DNA from: a virus
Length of the DNA: 64,000 nt
UHGV virus genome: UHGV-0073881
Strand: one strand, 5' to 3'
The position numbers were made by a program, and so were the translations under genes. This document shows, in pieces, positions 16,036 to 21,330 of this stretch; positions within the stretch are counted from its first letter, which is position 1, and each line of letters starts with the position of its first letter. Under the pieces are notes generated by a model. It saw nothing but the letters and a program-made list of their open reading frames with translations, did not search any database and was not told where the DNA came from.

Positions 16036-16112
16036 CTCTGTTTAGCTCAGTTTGGTAGAGCGTTCCGTTTGGGGCGGTAAGGCCAGAGGTTCAAGTCCTC
16101 TAACAGAGACCA
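16036..16112 (+). tRNA. tRNA-Pro (anticodon TGG), isotype tentative
   Basis: acceptor CTCTGTT/AACAGAG, D-stem GCTC/GAGC, T-arm AGAGG-TTCAAGT-CCTCT, anticodon loop TTTGGGG, CCA encoded. Confidence 0.7.
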
Positions 16113-16119
16113 AATTAAT

Positions 16120-16194
16120 GTCGTAGAAGGCAAATGGTTAGCCACCTGACCTTCAATCAGTTGCTCGCGGGTTCGAATCCCGTCTACGACTCCA
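16120..16194 (+). tRNA. tRNA, anticodon TTC (Glu?), isotype uncertain
   Basis: acceptor GTCGTAG/CTACGAC, T-arm GCGGG-TTCGAAT-CCCGT, CCA encoded; anticodon loop CCTTCAA has C at position 33. Confidence 0.6.
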
Positions 16195-16200
16195 AATTTG

Positions 16201-16269
16201 ACAGAAGACCAAATACAGCAAACAACTTTTACTTTTCGCGCATAGAAAACATAAAAAGCTTGGTCTGGT
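16201..16269 (+). repeat. tRNA-array spacer module A (ACAGAAGACC ... ACAGCAA ... GGTCTGGT)
   Basis: conserved 5-prime ACAGAAGACC and 3-prime GGTCTGGT ends with AT-rich core; 4 copies in array. Confidence 0.6.
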
Positions 16270-16279
16270 CATTAAGAAT

Positions 16280-16356
16280 TGCGGGTATAGAGAAAGGGCG
16301 TCTCACATGTCTCATTAGCATGGTATCGGTAGGTTCGACTCCTGCACCCGCCTCCA
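16280..16356 (+). tRNA. tRNA-Met-like (anticodon CAT)
   Basis: acceptor TGCGGGT/ACCCGCC (1:72 mismatch), T-arm GTAGG-TTCGACT-CCTGC, loop CTCATTA, CCA encoded; weak D-stem. Confidence 0.6.
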
Positions 16357-16361
16357 AATTT

Positions 16362-16425
16362 ACAGAAGACCGTTTACAGCAATTCAAACAATTTTATCGG
16401 AAAATTAAAATGAATACGGTCTGGT
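16362..16425 (+). repeat. tRNA-array spacer module B
   Basis: ACAGAAGACCGTTTACAGCAA ... ACGGTCTGGT. Confidence 0.6.
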
Positions 16426-16437
16426 AATGTTAAACAT

Positions 16438-16514
16438 GGTTAGGAAGCACATAAGGCATGTGCGGTCGGCTGTTAACCGAATGGCACAGGGTTCGAATCC
16501 CTGACTAACCGCCA
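16438..16514 (+). tRNA. tRNA-Asn (anticodon GTT)
   Basis: acceptor GGTTAGG/ACTAACC, D-stem GCAC/GTGC, T-arm CAGGG-TTCGAAT-CCCTG, loop CTGTTAA, CCA encoded. Confidence 0.75.
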
Positions 16515-16524
16515 AAATTTAAAT

Positions 16525-16612
16525 GCGTCGTTATCCCGTAGATGGAAGCGGTGGTGACTGTAAATCACTTGTCATTACGACTCGGTAGGTTCGACTCCTT
16601 CACGGCGCACCA
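16525..16612 (+). tRNA. tRNA-Tyr (anticodon GTA), class II with long variable arm
   Basis: 88 nt; acceptor GCGTCGT/ACGGCGC, anticodon stem GGTGA/TCACT loop CTGTAAA, T-loop TTCGACT, CCA encoded. Confidence 0.7.
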
Positions 16613-16618
16613 AATAAA

Positions 16619-16696
16619 GGTTATGTAGTTTAATCTGGTTAAAATACCTCCCTGTCACGGAGGAAGATGTGGGTTCGAATCCCATCGTAACCGCCA
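16619..16696 (+). tRNA. tRNA-Asp (anticodon GTC)
   Basis: acceptor GGTTATG/CGTAACC, anticodon stem CCTCC/GGAGG loop CTGTCAC, T-arm GTGGG-TTCGAAT-CCCAT, CCA encoded. Confidence 0.75.
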
Positions 16697-16754
16697 ATTT
16701 TGAGAAGGGCTTTTTAGCCCCTCCCTTAAAGAGTTCTTGCGAGTATTCTTTAAA

Positions 16755-16835
16755 GGAGCAGAAGACCAAATTCAGCAAGCAACAAAAATATTTCAAGCCA
16801 ATTAATTTGAAAAATTTAAAACTTGGTCTGGTTCC
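16755..16835 (+). repeat. tRNA-array spacer module C
   Basis: GCAGAAGACCAAATTCAGCAA ... CTTGGTCTGGT. Confidence 0.55.
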
Positions 16836-16844
16836 AACAAATTT

Positions 16845-16969
16845 ACAGAAGACCGTTTACAGCAAGTTAAACAATCTAATTCTCTATGAAAGAAAGGGCG
16901 AAGGTTCGATTCCTTCACACGTTACGGCGTGTTGGTGTAATGGCAGCACTTAAGATGATACGGTCTGGT
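16845..16969 (+). repeat. tRNA-array spacer module D, carrying a tRNA-like T-arm and acceptor-like hairpin
   Basis: ACAGAAGACCGTTTACAGCAA ... GAAGG-TTCGATT-CCTTC (16900-16916), ACACG-TTACGG-CGTGT hairpin (16917-16932) ... ACGGTCTGGT; no full cloverleaf. Confidence 0.55.
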
Positions 16970-17118
16970 AATCCTCTTTGCAGTGACTTATGGAGCTAAT
17001 ATATCGTCCCATGAGTGCCGATGAATCTCTTGAGCATGATTCTAGATTAGCTTACTAAGAGATGACTCTACAAACCCTTTAGCAAGGTTTGCGTAGGTTA
17101 CTGCAAAGATGATTTAAT

Positions 17119-17194
17119 GGAAGTGTAGCAGAATGGTGATGCGGCAGACTTTTAATCTGACAGGCGATGGGTTCGAATCCCTCCACTTCTACCA
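17119..17194 (+). tRNA. tRNA-Lys (anticodon TTT)
   Basis: acceptor GGAAGTG/CACTTCT, anticodon loop CTTTTAA, T-loop TTCGAAT, CCA encoded. Confidence 0.7.
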
Positions 17195-17279
17195 AATTCG
17201 CCCTTAATTGAAGAATACCTACTTCGCGGCTGGAAACACCCACGAAAAATCAATTCTTCTCCAAAGGGCAACTTATTAC

Positions 17280-17356
17280 GGTTCAGTCGCAGATAAGGTA
17301 ATGCAAGGGTTTCATAAGCCCTATGAATGTGGGTTCGACTCCCATCTGAACCTCCA
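17280..17356 (+). tRNA. tRNA with anticodon CAT (Met or Ile2)
   Basis: acceptor GGTTCAG/CTGAACC, anticodon stem AGGGT/GCCCT loop TTCATAA, T-arm GTGGG-TTCGACT-CCCAT, CCA encoded. Confidence 0.75.
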
Positions 17357-17358
17357 AT

Positions 17359-17433
17359 TGTGGGTTAGCATAAATGGTAATGCAAACGGCTGATAACCGT
17401 TAGAAGAGGGTTCGATACCCTCACCTACAACCA
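17359..17433 (+). tRNA. tRNA-Ile (anticodon GAT)
   Basis: acceptor TGTGGGT/ACCTACA, D-stem GCA/TGC, anticodon stem AACGG/CCGTT loop CTGATAA, T-arm GAGGG-TTCGATA-CCCTC, CCA encoded. Confidence 0.75.
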
Positions 17434-17448
17434 ATTCCAATAAAGTTG

Positions 17449-17477
17449 TTGACATTAACATGTGACCACTTTATAGT
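17449..17477 (+). promoter_or_regulatory. strong sigma70-like promoter inside tRNA array (TTGACA-N17-TATAGT)
   Basis: -35 TTGACA 17449-17454, 17-nt spacer, -10 TATAGT 17472-17477; followed by about 320 nt with no ORF and no canonical tRNA. Confidence 0.55.
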
Positions 17478-17801
17478 AACTAAAATACTTCATAATATGT
17501 ATAATTCAAACACCAATACATGAGCGTTAGACGTAACACAATGTGGGGAAATTTGTTGTACATATTCTGAATAGTTTTCGTTAGTGTAGCGTCTATTTTG
17601 CAAACTTAAAAATAAATGCAAACGATAATGTTTTTCTGGCAGTAGCTTAATAGGCTAAACACCAGTGAGGTCTTCCAATCCCTCATCAAAGAATTTGGCG
17701 TACTAGCCCACGGTATGATTAATAAAGTGGGCGACATTCTAAAGGGTATCCCTTATGGGGCTTGGCTTAAATGCAATGAGTACCCTTTAAAATGTTAATT
17801 A

Positions 17802-17883
17802 CGGGGCGTATCTCAGCGGTCTTCTAAACCGCCGTTAACCGAGTAAGTGGAGTATGCGGGTTCGAGTCCTGCCGCCTCGACCA
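17802..17883 (+). tRNA. atypical tRNA-like gene (Arg TCT-like anticodon arm), possible pseudogene
   Basis: acceptor CGGGGCG/CGCCTCG, T-arm GCGGG-TTCGAGT-CCTGC, CCA encoded; stem GCGGT/ACCGC with loop CTTCTAA but no canonical D-arm and a 23-nt segment before the T-arm. Confidence 0.4.
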
Positions 17884-17898
17884 ATTTTGGATGAAATC

Positions 17899-18246
17899 AT
17901 GAAGACTTGTATTAGGTGCAAACTTAGCAAGGATGAAAATGATTTCTACATGAAAGATGGTAGGAGAACTCATTCATACTGTAAAAAGTGTGTTAATGAG
18001 CAAACCATAGAAAGACAAAGAGCACTTAAACTTTCAGCTGTTGAGTACAAAGGTGGGGTTTGTCATGATTGTGGTAAAAGGTATCATCCAGCAGTGTATG
18101 ACTTCCATCATTTGAATCCTTCAGAGAAAGATTTTAACATTGGTCATAGAAAAAGTCTTAAGTTCTCTCAGGAGCTAAAGAACGAACTTGACAAATGTGT
18201 TTTGCTATGTTCAAATTGCCATAGGGTAAGACATGCAAAGTATTAG
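17899..18246 (+). CDS. HNH endonuclease (zinc-finger plus HNH) embedded in tRNA array
   Basis: CxxC...CxxC and FHHLNPSEKD...LLCSNCHRVRH motifs; ORF track 17854 start lies inside the tRNA, so start moved to ATG 17899. Confidence 0.8.
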   Translation: MKTCIRCKLSKDENDFYMKDGRRTHSYCKKCVNEQTIERQRALKLSAVEYKGGVCHDCGKRYHPAVYDFHHLNPSEKDFNIGHRKSLKFSQELKNELDKCVLLCSNCHRVRHAKY

Positions 18247-18383
18247 TTAGCAGATTGCTTAGACGACCTTAACGGGTCTCCTGTAAGGAGGTGGTCTGTA
18301 TCTCATGTTTCCAGAGCATGTAAAAATATTCTGAGAAGGGGCTTTACAGTGTTGTGATAATACGGTAAGCTTCGAATTATAAT

Positions 18384-18466
18384 ATGGGACGATGTTAAGA
18401 CTCTAAGGCATGAGCAACGGCTTCCAACACCGTTTCAAAGGGGTTCAACTCCTCCGTCCCATGCCA
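18384..18466 (+). tRNA. tRNA, possibly Trp (anticodon CCA); atypical
   Basis: acceptor ATGGGAC/GTCCCAT, T-loop TTCAACT, CCA encoded; stem AACGG/CCGTT around TTCCAAC; extra nucleotides between acceptor and D region. Confidence 0.45.
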
Positions 18467-18478
18467 AAGTCTTATTAG

Positions 18479-18567
18479 GGGTAGGTAGCGGCTAATGGTA
18501 GCCAAACTGTCTTGAAAACAGTTGCCACTGTAGAGATACGGTGAGGGTTCGACTCCTTTACTTACCG
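18479..18567 (+). tRNA. tRNA-Ser (anticodon TGA), class II
   Basis: acceptor GGTAGGT/ACTTACC, D-stem GGC/GCC, anticodon stem ACTGT/ACAGT loop CTTGAAA, long variable arm, T-loop TTCGACT; CCA not encoded. Confidence 0.7.
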
Positions 18568-18817
18568 CCTAATAAGATTTAAAGCCGCGCTTCGTTCGGA
18601 TGTTGCGTTAGGTTTCACTTCGTGTATTGTCGTACACGATGTTGAGAAAGCACCTAGTAGGTGTCACGGAGAAGAGATAGCATCAAGCTCTCCAAAGGTT
18701 CTAGTCACCGGATTAAACAAGACTATGCAAAGACTGATTAGGTCTTTTTAGATAACTTCTGAGGCAAACTATACCATTGTTGCTTTGGGTCTTGGAAGTT
18801 CTCTACAAAGATTTAAT

Positions 18818-18894
18818 GCACCTATAGCCCAATTGGAAGAGGCAGCAGACTTAGAATCTGTTCAGTGTGAGTTCGACTCTCTCTAGGTGTACCA
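18818..18894 (+). tRNA. tRNA with anticodon TAG (Leu-type anticodon, class I length)
   Basis: acceptor GCACCTA/TAGGTGT, D-arm CCCAATTGGAAGAGG, anticodon stem GCAGA/TCTGT loop CTTAGAA, T-loop TTCGACT, CCA encoded. Confidence 0.6.
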
Positions 18895-18901
18895 AATTAA
18901 T

Positions 18902-18977
18902 GCAGGTGTAGCAAAATGGTTATGCGGCTGACTCTTAATCAGTAAGACGATGGGTTCAATTCCCTCCACCTGTACCA
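18902..18977 (+). tRNA. tRNA with anticodon CTT (Lys?)
   Basis: acceptor GCAGGTG/CACCTGT, anticodon stem GCTGA/TCAGT loop CTCTTAA, T-loop TTCAATT, CCA encoded. Confidence 0.6.
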
Positions 18978-18983
18978 AACATT

Positions 18984-19059
18984 GGGGATGTAGTTTACAT
19001 GGTTAAAACATAAGTTTTGCAAACTTAAGTACAGGGTTCAATTCCATGCTTCTCCACCA
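18984..19059 (+). tRNA. tRNA-Ala (anticodon TGC)
   Basis: acceptor GGGGATG/CTTCTCC with G3:U70 identity pair, anticodon stem TAAGT/ACTTA loop TTTGCAA, T-loop TTCAATT, CCA encoded. Confidence 0.75.
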
Positions 19060-19065
19060 ATTAGT

Positions 19066-19140
19066 GCATCCATAGTTTAAACGGGAAAATTACAGTCTTC
19101 CAAACTGAGGTTGAGGGTTCGATTCCCTCTGGATGCTCCA
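19066..19140 (+). tRNA. tRNA-Gly (anticodon TCC)
   Basis: acceptor GCATCCA/TGGATGC, T-arm GAGGG-TTCGATT-CCCTC, anticodon loop CTTCCAA, CCA encoded. Confidence 0.75.
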
Positions 19141-19146
19141 ATTCAT

Positions 19147-19222
19147 GCTCCTATCGTATAACTGGCTATTACGGTTGTCTTGTAAGCAACTTATCAGGGT
19201 TCGAATCCTTGTGGGAGCACCA
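19147..19222 (+). tRNA. tRNA-Thr (anticodon TGT)
   Basis: acceptor GCTCCTA/TGGGAGC, D-stem CGTA/TACG, anticodon stem GTTGT/GCAAC loop CTTGTAA, T-arm CAGGG-TTCGAAT-CCTTG, CCA encoded. Confidence 0.7.
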
Positions 19223-19316
19223 ATTTGAGGTCAAGTGAAAGACCGCTTGAGTCAACTGAAGACCGTAACAAATTCCACGGAGTTGAGTTAGCGGCACAAC
19301 TTCAGACCTCTTTAAA

Positions 19317-19391
19317 GCTCGCTTAGTTTATATGGTAAAGCCCCATCCTTACAAGTTGGTGAAGAAGGTTCAAGTCCTTCAGCGAGTACCA
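19317..19391 (+). tRNA. tRNA-Val (anticodon TAC)
   Basis: acceptor GCTCGCT/AGCGAGT, T-arm GAAGG-TTCAAGT-CCTTC, anticodon loop CTTACAA, CCA encoded. Confidence 0.7.
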
Positions 19392-19392
19392 A

Positions 19393-19470
19393 GTTCCAGT
19401 ATCCCAATTGGCAGAGGATGCAAGCTCAAACCTTGTATTAGTGACGGTTCGAATCCGTCTTGGAACACCA
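19393..19470 (+). tRNA. tRNA with anticodon CAA (Leu-type anticodon, class I length)
   Basis: acceptor GTTCCAG/TTGGAAC, D-stem ATCC/GGAT with loop CAATTGGCAGA, anticodon stem GCAAG/CTTGT loop CTCAAAC, T-arm GACGG-TTCGAAT-CCGTC, CCA encoded. Confidence 0.65.
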
Positions 19471-19487
19471 AATTTTAGGAGATTCCT

Positions 19488-19700
19488 ATGAAGCCTTATG
19501 GTAGACACGGTAAAGTTGAAATTGCAAGTTGTGGTTGCTGTGCTTCTCACGATGGTGAAGAAGATTACTACAAGTGGCGTACAGACCATCGTAGACGCTT
19601 TCTCAGAAGAGATAAGAAGAAAGCTAGACAGGAATCTCGAAAAGATATTGCAGAATTAGTTCAAATGGATAGAGCAGCAACCTACGAAGTTGTTAGTTAG
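19488..19700 (+). CDS. hypothetical small basic protein (70 aa); 3-prime end overlaps tRNA-Arg
   Basis: ORF track; RBS AGGAG 7 nt before ATG; last 50 nt overlap the tRNA at 19650. Confidence 0.35.
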   Translation: MKPYGRHGKVEIASCGCCASHDGEEDYYKWRTDHRRRFLRRDKKKARQESRKDIAELVQMDRAATYEVVS

Positions 19701-19723
19701 GGGTTCGAATCCCTTATTCTGCA
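19650..19723 (+). tRNA. tRNA-Arg (anticodon ACG)
   Basis: acceptor GCAGAAT/ATTCTGC, D-stem GTTC/GAGC, anticodon stem GCAAC/GTTGT loop CTACGAA, T-arm AGGGG-TTCGAAT-CCCTT; CCA not encoded. Confidence 0.75.
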
Positions 19724-19744
19724 CAAATTTTAGAAGGTAATTAT

Positions 19745-19972
19745 ATGCGTAAACTCATTATTGAAAGGCATAAAGATGCTGACAAGATTGAAACAACACA
19801 AGTTGGGGACACTGACTTCATTCTTGTAGGTTGGAAATGTGACCCAATAGCAGCTATGAAGGTTGTTCATGGTTTTGCAGGAATTGAATTTAATCAAATC
19901 ATATTTGAAACGCTATTACCAGAAAATCAGGATACGTGTAATAACGCATATATCCTGACAAGAGTTCGTTAG
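19745..19972 (+). CDS. hypothetical protein (75 aa) between tRNA genes
   Basis: ORF track; ATG start; stop abuts tRNA-Gln. Confidence 0.4.
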   Translation: MRKLIIERHKDADKIETTQVGDTDFILVGWKCDPIAAMKVVHGFAGIEFNQIIFETLLPENQDTCNNAYILTRVR

Positions 19973-20046
19973 GGGATTAGTTTACAAGGTTAAAACCTCG
20001 GTCTTTGAAATCGAAGAAGTTGGTTCAATTCCAACATCCCCCGCCA
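19971..20046 (+). tRNA. tRNA-Gln (anticodon TTG)
   Basis: acceptor AGGGGAT/ATCCCCC (1:72 mismatch), anticodon stem TCGGT/ATCGA loop CTTTGAA, T-arm GTTGG-TTCAATT-CCAAC, CCA encoded. Confidence 0.7.
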
Positions 20047-20048
20047 AT

Positions 20049-20127
20049 GCTCCATTACTCCAATTGGCAGAGAGGCCAGACTTAAAATCTGTGTTATGTA
20101 TCGGTTCGAATCCGATATGGAGTACCA
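20049..20127 (+). tRNA. tRNA with anticodon TAA (Leu-type anticodon, class I length)
   Basis: acceptor GCTCCAT/ATGGAGT, D-arm CCAATTGGCAGAG, anticodon loop CTTAAAA, T-arm ATCGG-TTCGAAT-CCGAT, CCA encoded. Confidence 0.65.
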
Positions 20128-20133
20128 AATATT

Positions 20134-20209
20134 AGCAGTGTAGCATAACTGGCAATGCTCCAGCCTCTGAAGCTGAAAGATTAAGGTTCAAATCCTTACA
20201 CTGCTGCCA
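20134..20209 (+). tRNA. tRNA with anticodon CTG (Gln)
   Basis: acceptor AGCAGTG/CACTGCT, D-stem GCAT/ATGC, anticodon loop CTCTGAA, T-arm TTAAG-GTTCAAAT-CCTTA, CCA encoded. Confidence 0.65.
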
Positions 20210-20240
20210 CTTCTAAGGGTTCTTACGAGAGTCCTTAAAT

Positions 20241-20317
20241 GTGGCCTTATCATAAATGGATAATGACCCATGCTGTGAACATGGTCTATACGGGTTCGAT
20301 TCCCGTAGGTCACCCCA
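20241..20317 (+). tRNA. tRNA-His (anticodon GTG)
   Basis: acceptor GTGGCCT/AGGTCAC with C73, D-stem TCAT/ATGA, anticodon stem CCATG/CATGG loop CTGTGAA, T-arm ACGGG-TTCGATT-CCCGT, CCA encoded. Confidence 0.75.
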
Positions 20318-20324
20318 ATTTTAA

Positions 20325-20401
20325 TAGCTCAATTAGCTTATATGGTTAAAGCGCGTGTCTGAAAAACATGAGAACAGGGTTCAAATCCCGATGGGCTACC
20401 A
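20325..20401 (+). tRNA. tRNA-Phe (anticodon GAA), irregular acceptor/D junction
   Basis: anticodon stem CGTGT/ACATG loop CTGAAAA, D-stem GCTT/AAGC, acceptor TAGCTCA/TGGGCTA, T-loop TTCAAAT, CCA at 20399-20401. Confidence 0.6.
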
Positions 20402-20417
20402 ACTTTATAGGTGCATA

Positions 20418-21152
20418 ATGAAAGAGATGACAGGACAAGGTAAAGAGATTTTCAATCTCCTTAAATCCGGTAACGGGTTCTCTAACCCTCTTATTACTGG
20501 TGCAGCAGTTCTTGGTGGTACAGTTGCTGCTTCTCAGTCATTAATCACTTCAATTAGTTCTGTATCAGACCCAGCTACCCAGCAAATCCTTATTGCTGCT
20601 GGCTTGACAACTGCCTTACTAAGCAGCTTTACAACAAGCCTTGGTAGCACCACTTCAACGACAACTACTTTAACTGACTATGGACAGAAGTCTGTAGATG
20701 AGTTTTCACAGCGTATGCAGGTAGCCAAAGGATACTCTAATGTTATGGGAGCAGCGGGTGAACAAGTTGGATGTACACCGTTTAGTGGAATCATGGGAGT
20801 TGCTACTGAATACGGTAACAAGGCTATGGATTTGATTAACACCTCCATAGATGCCGTAAACAGCGTTCTAAGCGACTTACAGGATGCAATTGATAAAGGA
20901 CTAGCAACCATCTCTGACCTCGCTACACAAGCTGTTACAGCGATTAATGAAGGTATGGCAAAGATTACTGCCTACGCTAATGAAGTGGCTCAGATGATTG
21001 CAGACGAAGCAGCAATGATTGCAGAGTATCTAAAAACCAATATTAATGGTTTCCTTGCAAATGTTTTACCAGATTGGTTTAACGATGATTGTAAGACGGG
21101 TGTAATTGATACAATTGCAACTCCAGAGATGAAAGAAGCTCTAAACAAATAA
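20418..21152 (+). CDS. hypothetical Ala/Ser/Thr-rich protein embedded in tRNA operon (about 244 aa)
   Basis: ORF track 20355-21152; start moved to first ATG after tRNA-Phe (MKEMTGQ) with AGGTG RBS. Confidence 0.6.
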   Translation: MKEMTGQGKEIFNLLKSGNGFSNPLITGAAVLGGTVAASQSLITSISSVSDPATQQILIAAGLTTALLSSFTTSLGSTTSTTTTLTDYGQKSVDEFSQRMQVAKGYSNVMGAAGEQVGCTPFSGIMGVATEYGNKAMDLINTSIDAVNSVLSDLQDAIDKGLATISDLATQAVTAINEGMAKITAYANEVAQMIADEAAMIAEYLKTNINGFLANVLPDWFNDDCKTGVIDTIATPEMKEALNK

Positions 21153-21155
21153 TTT

Positions 21156-21248
21156 GGAAGATTAACCCTAAAAGGTAAGGGAGCAGTTTGCTAAACTGCC
21201 AGTAGCTGAGAAATTGGTGTACCAGTTCAAGTCTGGTATCTTCCTCCA
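21156..21248 (+). tRNA. tRNA-Ser (anticodon GCT), class II
   Basis: 93 nt; acceptor GGAAGAT/ATCTTCC, D-stem CCC/GGG, anticodon stem GCAGT/ACTGC loop TTGCTAA, long variable arm, T-arm ACCAG-TTCAAGT-CTGGT, CCA encoded. Confidence 0.75.
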
Positions 21249-21254
21249 AATTTT

Positions 21255-21330
21255 GCATTGGTGTCAGAAATGGATATGTACCTGTCTGCAAAACAGGTTT
21301 ATGAGGGTTCGAGTCCCTTCCAATGCTCCA
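21255..21330 (+). tRNA. tRNA-Cys (anticodon GCA)
   Basis: acceptor GCATTGG/CCAATGC, anticodon stem CCTGT/ACAGG loop CTGCAAA, T-arm GAGGG-TTCGAGT-CCCTT, CCA encoded. Confidence 0.8.

Follow-up and report, generated by a model that had tools for sequence, protein, structure and literature searches.

Putative tRNA-Arg(UCU) and tRNA-Trp(CCA) genes with non-standard cores on either side of an optional HNH gene in a Felix O1-like phage

Two tRNA-like elements lie on either side of an HNH endonuclease gene in UHGV virus genome UHGV-0073881, from which a stretch of 64,000 nucleotides (nt), here called the window, was analyzed. Neither presents a standard cloverleaf, and a preliminary description of the locus, made by inspection of the letters, suggested that they could be damaged or non-canonical tRNAs near a homing endonuclease. 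The question that the locus raises is which of these two terms applies. Both elements are conserved, their helices covary, they carry Arg- and Trp-type identity nucleotides, and sister phages have, at the same sites, callable tRNAs with the same anticodons; it is the second term that stands. Judged from sequence comparisons, both elements are probably working phage tRNA genes with non-standard cores, that is, functional non-canonical decoders. Element 1 is a structural variant of tRNA for which no earlier description was found; element 2 is a milder, lineage-restricted oddity.

The window belongs to a Felix O1-like phage (Felixounavirus, Ounavirinae). The 1.5 kb around both elements matches 284 phage records, among them Felix O1 itself with 95% identity. 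The tRNA array occupies 16036-21330 on the plus strand, where ARAGORN and Rfam each report 23 tRNAs in lists that are not identical. The calls made by Rfam only are 16120-16191 and 17802-17880, the latter within element 1. For 18384-18466, element 2, nothing is reported by ARAGORN in default mode or by the Rfam tRNA scan of the window. Both elements sit in same-strand tRNA arrays, in the window as in the relatives that were fetched. The Felix O1 genome paper lists 22 tRNAs, none of them between Ile and Leu(TAG) (PMC3185647).

Element 1 reads CGGGGCG UAUCUCA GCGGU CUUCUAA ACCGC CGUUAACCGAGUAAGUGGAGUAU GCGGG UUCGAGU CCUGC CGCCUCG A CCA (Table 1). The good acceptor and T arm, the loop CTTCTAA, and the missing canonical D arm of the preliminary description hold base for base. 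The acceptor has 7 bp (CGGGGCG/CGCCTCG, including one G-U), the anticodon stem has 5 bp and a 7-nt loop with U33 and a purine at 37, and the T stem has 5 bp and a GUUCRA loop; a single discriminator and CCA follow, and all of these features covary. The anticodon loop keeps the form C-U-NNN-A-A/C throughout the family. Only 7 nt (UAUCUCA) lie between acceptor and anticodon stem, where a D hairpin would require a stem of 3-4 bp and a loop of 8-11 nt, and 23 nt lie between the anticodon arm and the T arm.

Standard cloverleaves that a manual fold might have missed were looked for with software, and none emerged: ARAGORN in its default and -ps80 settings misses both elements. In mitochondrial mode (-mt) it reports 0 tRNAs with a D-replacement loop and leaves element 1 uncalled. 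The 'tRNA-Ala(cgc)' that it draws for element 1 at -ps60 was rejected as wrong, because that fold disregards the conserved loop. Rfam model RF00005 scores element 1 at 31.7 bits, above the gathering score of 29, through an alignment in which the D arm is deleted (4 nt for 15 model positions) and 20 nt are inserted in the variable region; no Rfam family except tRNA matches element 1 at either gathering or permissive thresholds. Our own covariance model R1 gives 102.3 bits to element 1 and at most 36.6 bits to the canonical tRNAs of the window.

The evidence that carries the reading of element 1 comes from an ungapped alignment, A1, of 43 distinct homologs from its main family. Pairing is seen in 99.0% of the pair cells, with changes on both sides in 16 of the 20 pairs; 0 of 500 shuffles match the observed values, and slid registers are only 33-49% paired. 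Acceptor, anticodon, and T stems vary freely with pairing kept. The unpaired strands UAU, A14, C32, UUAA, GUAA, and GGAGUAU are invariant, across unrelated phage families. The alignment also contains what the preliminary description overlooked, a helix that replaces the D arm. This D' helix joins columns 11-13 (CNC) to columns 40-42 (GNG). Its middle pair is U-A 38 times, A-U 4 times, G-C twice, and C-G once, and is never unpaired. Column 41 is the one partner with which column 12 covaries: their mutual information amounts to the whole entropy of column 12, and the next best column gives less than half as much. Across the wider class described below, all three pairs of the D' helix form in 85 of 103 sequences, compared to a mean of 25.9 and a maximum of 38 with shuffled partners, and the helix is built from 15 triplet types (CUC/GAG, CGG/CCG, CAC/GUG, CCC/GGG, ACC/GGU, CGC/GCG, and GCC/GGC among them). 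The linker begins with UA in 99 of these 103 sequences.

Because the D' helix encloses the anticodon arm, element 1 would be a three-way junction in which an acceptor/T stack bears one long arm. Within that arm, a 1 x 8 nt internal loop separates the 3-bp D' helix from the 5-bp anticodon stem with its loop. The counterpart of the 8-nt side of that internal loop measures 3-20 nt in other subfamilies and has a different sequence. RNAalifold, unaided, recovers the acceptor, anticodon, and T helices and draws no D arm. As read from these alignments, selection evidently acts at the RNA level on a defined non-cloverleaf structure.

Two further pairings were considered. Class II tRNAs (Leu, Ser, Tyr) are likewise long between anticodon and T arms, and the 23-nt stretch could be read as a variable arm by pairing 38-40 with 47-49, the small hairpin that RNAfold draws. 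That hairpin shows one-sided changes only and is impossible in subfamilies with a short bulge. It was rejected in favor of the D' helix: the class II variable-arm hairpin has no covarying counterpart in element 1, where part of the stretch pairs instead 5' of the anticodon arm. An extra helix of U8-A9-U10 with G51-U52-A53 is a possibility, but its two strands are invariant, and the sole hints of it come from the outliers L007 and L030, in a shifted register.

The core sequence points to a tRNA-Arg with its parts in a new order. In element 1, U8-A9-(U10)-C11-N12-C13-A14 matches the start of a standard tRNA core, G-N-G-U matches the 3' strand of the D stem, and AAYUGGA matches A14-A15-Y16-U17-G18-G19-A20 of the tRNA-Arg D loop; the canonical allele of Felixounavirus contig L184 has AACUGGA. 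To judge by this correspondence, the D loop and the anticodon arm have in effect exchanged places. The determinants recognized by bacterial arginyl-tRNA synthetase (ArgRS) are A20, the main one, with C35, U or G at 36, and A, G, or U at 73 (PMC9976931). All 99 Arg-type members of the class have C35, U36 or G36, and G, A, or U at 73, and an A always follows the GG of AAYUGGA.

The class was collected by a scan that required only the D-loop motif 7-14 nt before the T loop. It returned at least 120 stretches, and the loci that were parsed yielded at least 103 distinct sequences of 78-95 nt from unrelated phages. Anticodons among 103 parsed sequences are UCU (77), ACG (13), UCG (6), and CCU (3), which make up the 99 of Arg type, plus GAU for Ile (2) and two spurious cases. 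The discriminator is G in 53, A in 30, U in 20, and C in none, a distribution that fits the bacterial Arg rules (PMC9976931), and CCA is encoded in 59 of the 103. A covariance model built from A1 scores the family at 79-104 bits, canonical tRNAs at 37 bits or less, and a set of intermediate variants, which share the topology and differ in linkers and anticodons, at 48-70 bits. Members L007 and L165 carry ACG, and L159 has one CCU copy and one UCU copy. L007 came to light in a search for related loci with the HNH protein, which otherwise gave few Felix-like contigs. The two Ile (GAU) members with the rewired architecture, L291 and L311 (IMG/VR 3300033070_000598 and 3300022752_000079), are the only non-Arg sequences among about 101.

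The preliminary description also overlooked how widely element 1 is spread. A blastn search with the 82-nt sequence returns 263 phage records, at 82-90% identity across phage groups. Carriers include Felixounaviruses, T5-like phages of Klebsiella and Serratia, phi92-like phages, jumbo Asteriusvirus, one Vibrio phage, rV5-like Vequintavirinae (Proteus phage Mydo, Escherichia phage W70), and Klebsiella phages of about 145 kb (e.g. KNP2). Where element 1 is annotated at all, it appears as 'tRNA-OTHER' or 'tRNA-Undet'. Pattern scans of IMG/VR add dozens more sequences. In 185,579 bacterial and archaeal species genomes, one per species, the main-family motif gives 69 hits, of which about 5 are real, all on short contigs of metagenome-assembled genomes (MAGs), and 5,426 complete E. 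coli genomes contain no match to either element. A host origin of element 1 was rejected on these counts, and the class is nearly restricted to phages. No description of its architecture was found in the full-text literature, subscription-only literature being outside that scope; all known bacterial tRNAs have been stated to be cloverleaves (PMC11551756).

What element 1 may do is suggested by what replaces it. Between the flanks that hold element 1 in the window, contig L184 has an ARAGORN-callable canonical tRNA-Arg(UCU). A canonical tRNA-Arg(UCU) is also found there, without element 1, in Mooglevirus Sf16 and Moogle, Suspvirus EcSzw-2, Yersinia P778, and Pectobacterium Arno18. Among arrays with five or more tRNAs, canonical Arg(tct) is present in 3 of 25 with element 1 versus 19 of 25 without it, a count that is indicative only, because the loci are related to one another. 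ARAGORN finds no other UCU tRNA in the window, where AGA, at a frequency of 17 per 1000, makes up 40.7% of the Arg codons, more than any other. Enterobacterial hosts use AGA rarely. In Felix O1, a tRNA that reads this over-represented codon 'might have been expected', and none was found (PMC3185647); element 1 would fill this gap.

The replacement data bear on the chief rival explanation, that the elements are tRNA mimics working outside translation. As decoys or inhibitors they would soak up a host tRNA-directed nuclease, or some other defense or tRNA-binding protein. The bait would be the anticodon loop together with the acceptor/T minihelix, and the altered core would bar the RNA from the ribosome. 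Such a role would suit the strict conservation of anticodon loop, T loop, and acceptor end around a non-standard core, the essentially phage-only distribution of the class, and the three arrays in which element 1 accompanies a canonical tRNA-Arg(UCU); host defenses that cut tRNAs exist, and some are reported to cut D loops (PMC12916289). A decoy is expected in addition to the canonical tRNA, however, and element 1 and canonical tRNA-Arg(UCU) are same-site alternatives, mostly exclusive. A decoy would leave the window without an AGA decoder of its own despite its heavy use of AGA. Four Arg anticodons on one scaffold suit decoding better than they suit bait for a single nuclease, and both the discriminator and the A20-like base obey the ArgRS rules. 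We regard a decoy role as unlikely, though worth keeping in view.

Element 2 reads AUGGGACG AUGUUAAGA CUC UAAGGCAU GAG C AACGG CUUCCAACA CCGUU UCAAA GGGG UUCAACU CCUC CGUCCCAU G CCA. For this element too, the perfect acceptor, the loop TTCCAAC, and the extra nucleotides after the acceptor were described correctly to the base. The acceptor has 7 bp, or 8 bp with G8-C. The D stem has 3 bp and an 8-nt loop and is preceded by 9 nt instead of 2, so it falls outside the standard D arm. Elsewhere element 2 is ordinary in standard numbering, except for C31.A39 and for A49.C65 or an eighth pair, G8-C65; G8 and C65 are invariant and pairable, which fits an 8/4 arrangement and a 7/5 arrangement with an A49.C65 mismatch alike. 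Alignment A2, of 12 distinct sequences, is paired in 99.6% of its cells, with changes on both sides in 8 of 20 pairs and none in slid registers. The anticodon stem occurs as AACGG/CCGUU, GACGG/CCGUU, GUAAG/CUUAC, and GUAGG/CCUAC, and the C.A that flanks the loop becomes C.C in P778 and Arno18. An alternative D stem, AUGU/GCAU, was rejected; it does not covary, and it clashes with the covarying CNC/GNG helix. A GUUAA motif common to both elements is not kept in other element-1 subfamilies and is probably a coincidence.

Bacterial Trp identity is given as G73, A1-U72, G2-C71 to G5-C68, A9, and C34 C35 A36 (PMC9976931 Table 1). Element 2 has A1-U72, G3-C70, G4-C69, G5-C68, A9, G73, and the anticodon CCA, with U2-A71 where G2-C71 is expected; by sequence it would carry nearly the whole set. 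RF00005 gives no hit to element 2 even at E <= 10, and the best Rfam match is to tRNA-Sec (16.9 bits, E 1.9, threshold 47); only the mitochondrial mode of ARAGORN calls it, as mtRNA-Trp(cca). It is found in 236 phage records, all of Ounavirinae type, and an IMG/VR scan independent of the acceptor sequence found no element 2 beyond Ounavirinae-type phages. No ARAGORN-callable tRNA-Trp occurs in the window or in the fetched arrays of element-2 relatives. In Escherichia phage VpaE1_ev78 (L002:1287-1776), an ARAGORN-callable 71-nt tRNA-Trp and an HNH-like open reading frame (ORF) of 134 amino acids replace element 2. Felixounaviruses are thus polymorphic at both sites, with element 1 or a canonical Arg gene at one and element 2 or a short Trp gene with an HNH ORF at the other.

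Upstream of element 2 (18343-18383) are two overlapping promoter-like sequences, TTTACA-17-TAAGCT (18343-18371, found by eye) and GTGATA-18-TATAAT (18354-18383, found by scan); the TTTACA of the first reads TTGACA in Sf16. A transcription unit may begin with element 2. In a promoter scan of the region, promoter-like counts did not exceed those of shuffles, and the candidate promoters are not relied on here.

Table 1. Positions in the window of the two elements, their parts, and the gene between them
Feature	Position	Strand	Basis
Element 1, putative non-canonical tRNA-Arg(UCU) gene, 82 nt, encoded CCA	17802..17883	+	sequence, Rfam, own covariance model
Element 1, acceptor stem 5' strand, pairs with 17873-17879	17802..17808	+	7/7 pairs change on both sides (43 sequences, A1)
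Element 1, linker U8-A9-U10	17809..17811	+	invariant columns 8-10 of A1
Element 1, D' helix 5' strand CUC, pairs with GAG 17841-17843, encloses anticodon arm	17812..17814	+	covariation
Element 1, anticodon arm GCGGU / CUUCUAA / ACCGC, UCU at 17823-17825	17816..17832	+	5/5 stem pairs compensatory
Element 1, 8-nt strand CGUUAACC, anticodon stem to D' 3' strand	17833..17840	+	C32 and UUAA invariant in main family
Element 1, D' helix 3' strand GAG	17841..17843	+	covariation with 17812-17814
Element 1, D-loop-like strand UAAGUGGAGUAU, contains AAYUGGA	17844..17855	+	GGAGUAU invariant
Element 1, T arm GCGGG / UUCGAGU / CCUGC	17856..17872	+	3/5 pairs change on both sides; GUUC.A..C conserved
Element 1, acceptor 3' strand 17873-17879, discriminator A 17880, CCA 17881-17883	17873..17883	+	
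Optional 357-bp HNH homing-endonuclease cassette (ORF 17899-18246)	17888..18244	+	PHROG 2255, LMP33 comparison
Element 2, putative non-canonical tRNA-Trp(CCA) gene, 83 nt, encoded CCA	18384..18466	+	sequence, alignment A2, ARAGORN -mt
Element 2, acceptor 5' strand AUGGGAC(G), pairs with 18455-18462	18384..18391	+	pairs 1 and 2 covary (A-U, G-U, G-C; U-A, C-G)
Element 2, 9-nt connector AUGUUAAGA, acceptor to D stem (standard tRNA: 2 nt)	18392..18400	+	invariant in 12/12 distinct sequences
Element 2, D arm CUC / UAAGGCAU / GAG	18401..18414	+	middle pair U-A 7, A-U 5; first pair C-G 11, U-G 1
Element 2, anticodon arm AACGG / C-UUCCAAC-A / CCGUU, CCA at 18424-18426	18416..18434	+	4/5 pairs compensatory
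Element 2, T arm GGGG / UUCAACU / CCUC	18440..18454	+	first pair G-C 10, U-A 2 (Moogle lineage)
Element 2, acceptor 3' strand, discriminator G 18463, CCA 18464-18466	18455..18466	+	

The ORF between the elements matches PHROG 2255 (E 3.8e-39), with a sub-threshold match to Pfam HNH (15.4 bits). The preliminary description placed the HNH gene correctly between the elements. The cassette starts 5 nt past the CCA of element 1, and exactly these 357 bp are missing in phage LMP33, which has both elements intact and 143 bp apart. Spacing of about 143 bp is also seen in MK482689, NC_071010, and MN994499. Since LMP33 has both elements intact without the cassette, the HNH gene did not damage or shape either of them.

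The LMP33 comparison also bears on whether the elements are tRNA pseudogenes in decay, after damage from recombination or from endonucleases acting in the array. Standard tools miss both elements, endonuclease genes adjoin them, truncated copies exist (e.g. L216:1458-1520), and the Felix O1 paper gives other 'pseudo' tRNAs for the same array (PMC3185647). The expected marks of decay are nevertheless missing: every helix of both elements has compensatory changes, the unpaired strands of element 1 are invariant across unrelated families, about 100 sequences share one architecture with Arg anticodons, and both elements are intact with and without the HNH gene. As for 'damaged', the other term of the preliminary description, it fits neither an element 1 that belongs to so large a class from unrelated phages nor an element 2 with compensatory changes across four Ounavirinae lineages. 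We consider decay extremely improbable.

The HNH ORF has the marks of a homing endonuclease gene, a family match together with presence/absence polymorphism at a fixed site. We propose that it is a free-standing homing endonuclease gene that landed just downstream of element 1. Free-standing homing endonucleases are familiar in phage tRNA clusters, as with SegB of T4 and the endonucleases of the T5 tRNA region. Like these, the optional HNH ORF of the window lies between tRNA genes and is polymorphic among close relatives. The mobile elements of T4 have been reviewed (PMC2988022).

Nuclease genes recur beside element 1. Of 51 distinct element-1 contexts, 15 have a nuclease-like ORF no more than 60 nt from the element; for canonical tRNAs of the same contexts the count is 19 of 210 (odds ratio 4.2, Fisher p = 3.6e-4, uncorrected for relatedness). 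Five unrelated families are represented (HNH_2-like, HNH_3/NUMOD4, HNH_3-like, HNH/HNH_5, and endonuclease I-like), and in 8 contexts the nuclease ORF begins 4-45 nt downstream of element 1. We know of no earlier report of nuclease enrichment beside one particular tRNA type. The invariant strands of element 1 should make it a good homing target, and its gene appears to be a preferred landing zone for homing nucleases. On a Neisseriaceae MAG contig (CALFYC010000064.1, L216:1458-2182), a truncated element 1 of the main type (1458-1520, the 5' 62 nt, ending inside the T stem) is followed by an HNH_2 ORF on the opposite strand and then by an intact variant copy; this looks like the footprint of endonuclease-driven gene replacement. 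Landing of nucleases, or co-conversion, has probably helped element 1 to move between unrelated phages as near-identical copies.

It is a further step to suppose that element 1 is kept mainly as DNA, as the site or co-converted flank of homing endonucleases, and that its spread reflects endonuclease drive and no benefit from the RNA. The enrichment, with its five families and its 8 close downstream ORFs, the footprint in L216, and the 82-90% identity across unrelated phage families are all in keeping with such drive. It would leave unexplained the RNA-type covariation, G-U pairs included, in four helices, as well as the restriction to Arg anticodons, and 27 of the 51 element-1 contexts have no nuclease gene within 2.5 kb. 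As a full account we find it improbable. Endonuclease drive would explain the mobility of element 1, not its existence, and in that capacity it complements the reading of element 1 as a tRNA gene.

The same 51 contexts were searched within 2.5 kb for a conserved partner, either a dedicated synthetase or a modifier, and only nuclease families recur. This matters for the idea that the elements are tRNA-like RNAs that do become charged but serve some purpose other than ribosomal decoding, such as amino-acid donation or regulation, an idea in keeping with identity elements that persist in a different core and with the regulatory roles proposed for other irregular tRNAs (PMC5389517). Besides the lack of a recurrent partner gene other than nucleases, the replacement of the elements at the same sites by canonical decoders argues for an ordinary job. 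We give such a use little credence.

If both elements are decoders, they would work as follows. Element 1 would be a tRNA-Arg(UCU) whose 5' part is standard up to A14 (U8, A9, the 5' strand of the D stem, and A14 itself). Its D stem would close around the anticodon arm and not around the D loop, with AAYUGGA placed after the D-stem 3' strand and before the T arm. RNase P and 3' processing would release it, like its neighbors, from the array transcript; host ArgRS would then charge it through C35, U36, the purine at 73, and the A20-like base, and it would read AGA on the ribosome. Element 2 would be a tRNA-Trp(CCA), normal but for its 9-nt connector and 3-bp D stem, and presumably charged by host tryptophanyl-tRNA synthetase.

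Several points weigh against this account. The D' helix has just 3 bp and is absent from the RNAalifold prediction, and the RNAfold stability of element 1 in the window is not above that of shuffles (z = 0.04). We know of no bacterial translation system that demonstrably uses a tRNA lacking the standard D arm. Although element 1 retains U8 and A14, its usual tertiary contacts are in doubt. Geometry raises the main doubt: were the D' helix placed as a normal D stem, the anticodon arm would leave from the elbow-facing end, so the arm must be arranged differently for an L-like shape. Element 2 has a C.A mismatch at 31-39 or, equally, a 9-nt anticodon loop, its acceptor has a bulge or a G.U pair in P778 and Arno18, and its diversity comes from only about five lineages. 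Finally, with both genes present in three arrays, replacement of canonical tRNA-Arg(UCU) by element 1 is not absolute, and the compared loci are interrelated, so that the counts overstate the number of independent events.

Comparison with known tRNAs places both elements. Canonical tRNA-Arg(UCU), as in L184, Mooglevirus Sf16, and T4, shares with element 1 the 7-bp acceptor, the 5-bp T stem, GUUCRA, CUUCUAA, U8, A9, A14, AAYUGGA, a purine discriminator, often an encoded CCA, and the genomic site. It differs in having a separate D hairpin and a four-way junction, whereas element 1 has a three-way junction and a 3-bp D stem around the anticodon arm. The D-armless tRNAs of mitochondria (metazoan mitochondrial tRNA-Ser(AGY) and the 'minimal' tRNAs of nematodes and mites) lack the D hairpin and keep other arms, as element 1 does, and work in translation without a cloverleaf (PMC4394434, PMC2797822). 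These, however, measure about 55-65 nt, have a simple replacement loop, and depend on adapted mitochondrial factors; element 1 has 82 nt, keeps the D-stem and D-loop sequence in a new order, and would need unmodified factors of the bacterial host. Natural tRNAs that depart from the 7/5 form include the 8/4, 9/3, and allo-tRNAs of Mukai et al. 2017, some of them in phages (PMC5389517). Element 2 can be drawn as 8/4; element 1 is 7/5, unlike the 8/4 and 9/3 irregular tRNAs. Allo-tRNAs combine a long variable arm with a long, tetraloop-capped D stem, and their identity is Ser, His, Cys, or Sec-like; in element 2 the variable loop measures 5 nt, the D stem is of 3 bp with a loop of 8 nt and comes after a 9-nt connector, and the identity nucleotides are of Trp type.

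A broader proposal follows for the element-1 class, and we put it forward tentatively, at rather less than an even chance: that it represents a second natural build of tRNA, a non-cloverleaf three-way junction with D loop and anticodon arm swapped, served by ordinary ArgRS and ribosomes, almost exclusively specific for Arg, confined to phages, and previously undescribed. That element 1 persists through invisibility to host or phage factors that recognize the D arm of standard tRNA-Arg is pure conjecture.

The array has other features of note. A tRNA-Glu(UUC)-like gene at 16120-16194 (Rfam 53.7 bits) is missed by ARAGORN and corresponds in position to tRNA #2 (Glu TTC) of the Felix O1 paper. 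An atypical tRNA-Tyr(GUA) at 16525-16612, with a long variable arm and imperfect D and T stems, scores only 22.8 bits by Rfam, is missed by ARAGORN, and is 'Pseudo (Tyr)' in the Felix O1 list; it would be the third irregular tRNA of the array. A sub-threshold tRNA match (26.9 bits) at 16861-16924 comprises hardly anything beyond the T-arm-like GAAGGUUCGAUUCCUUC and is possibly what is left of a tRNA. A conserved spacer of 370 nt (17434-17801) separates tRNA-Ile from element 1, behind a strong promoter-like TTGACA-17-TATAGT (17449-17477); near 17665-17690 it also contains a hairpin whose loop is a second UUCCAA. A weak Rfam match to permuted tmRNA (25.9 bits) covers 17376-17650, and a permuted 'tmRNA*' is called by ARAGORN in the homologous spacer region of Moogle (L168:323-1071).

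Irregular tRNAs occur in other phages as well. Klebsiella phage Roth37 has a second 'tRNA-OTHER' gene (L023:113-197, 85 nt) with normal acceptor, D, and T arms and a GC-rich hairpin inserted in the anticodon region; this is a different kind of irregular phage tRNA. For phi92 (L025:2135-2210) and Mydo (L026:1063-1137), ARAGORN reports 'tRNA-???' with two-base anticodons where the annotation has tRNA-Lys and tRNA-Ser; further anticodon loops of irregular form would thus be present in arrays in which element 1 also occurs.

If the reading proposed here is true, element 1 would test how much of the tRNA core is needed by ArgRS, RNase P, EF-Tu, and the ribosome, and how its scaffold could be put to use in tRNA engineering. 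It would also bear on the question why AGA and UGG decoders come out as 'missing' when Felix O1-, phi92-, rV5-, and T5-type phages and jumbo phages are annotated by pipeline; several of these groups are under development for therapy and biocontrol. Close phages whose one difference is a canonical or a rewired allele at a single site would offer a ready comparison for the question of why phages carry particular tRNAs, and the enrichment of homing endonucleases suggests a route by which tRNA genes may spread between unrelated viruses.

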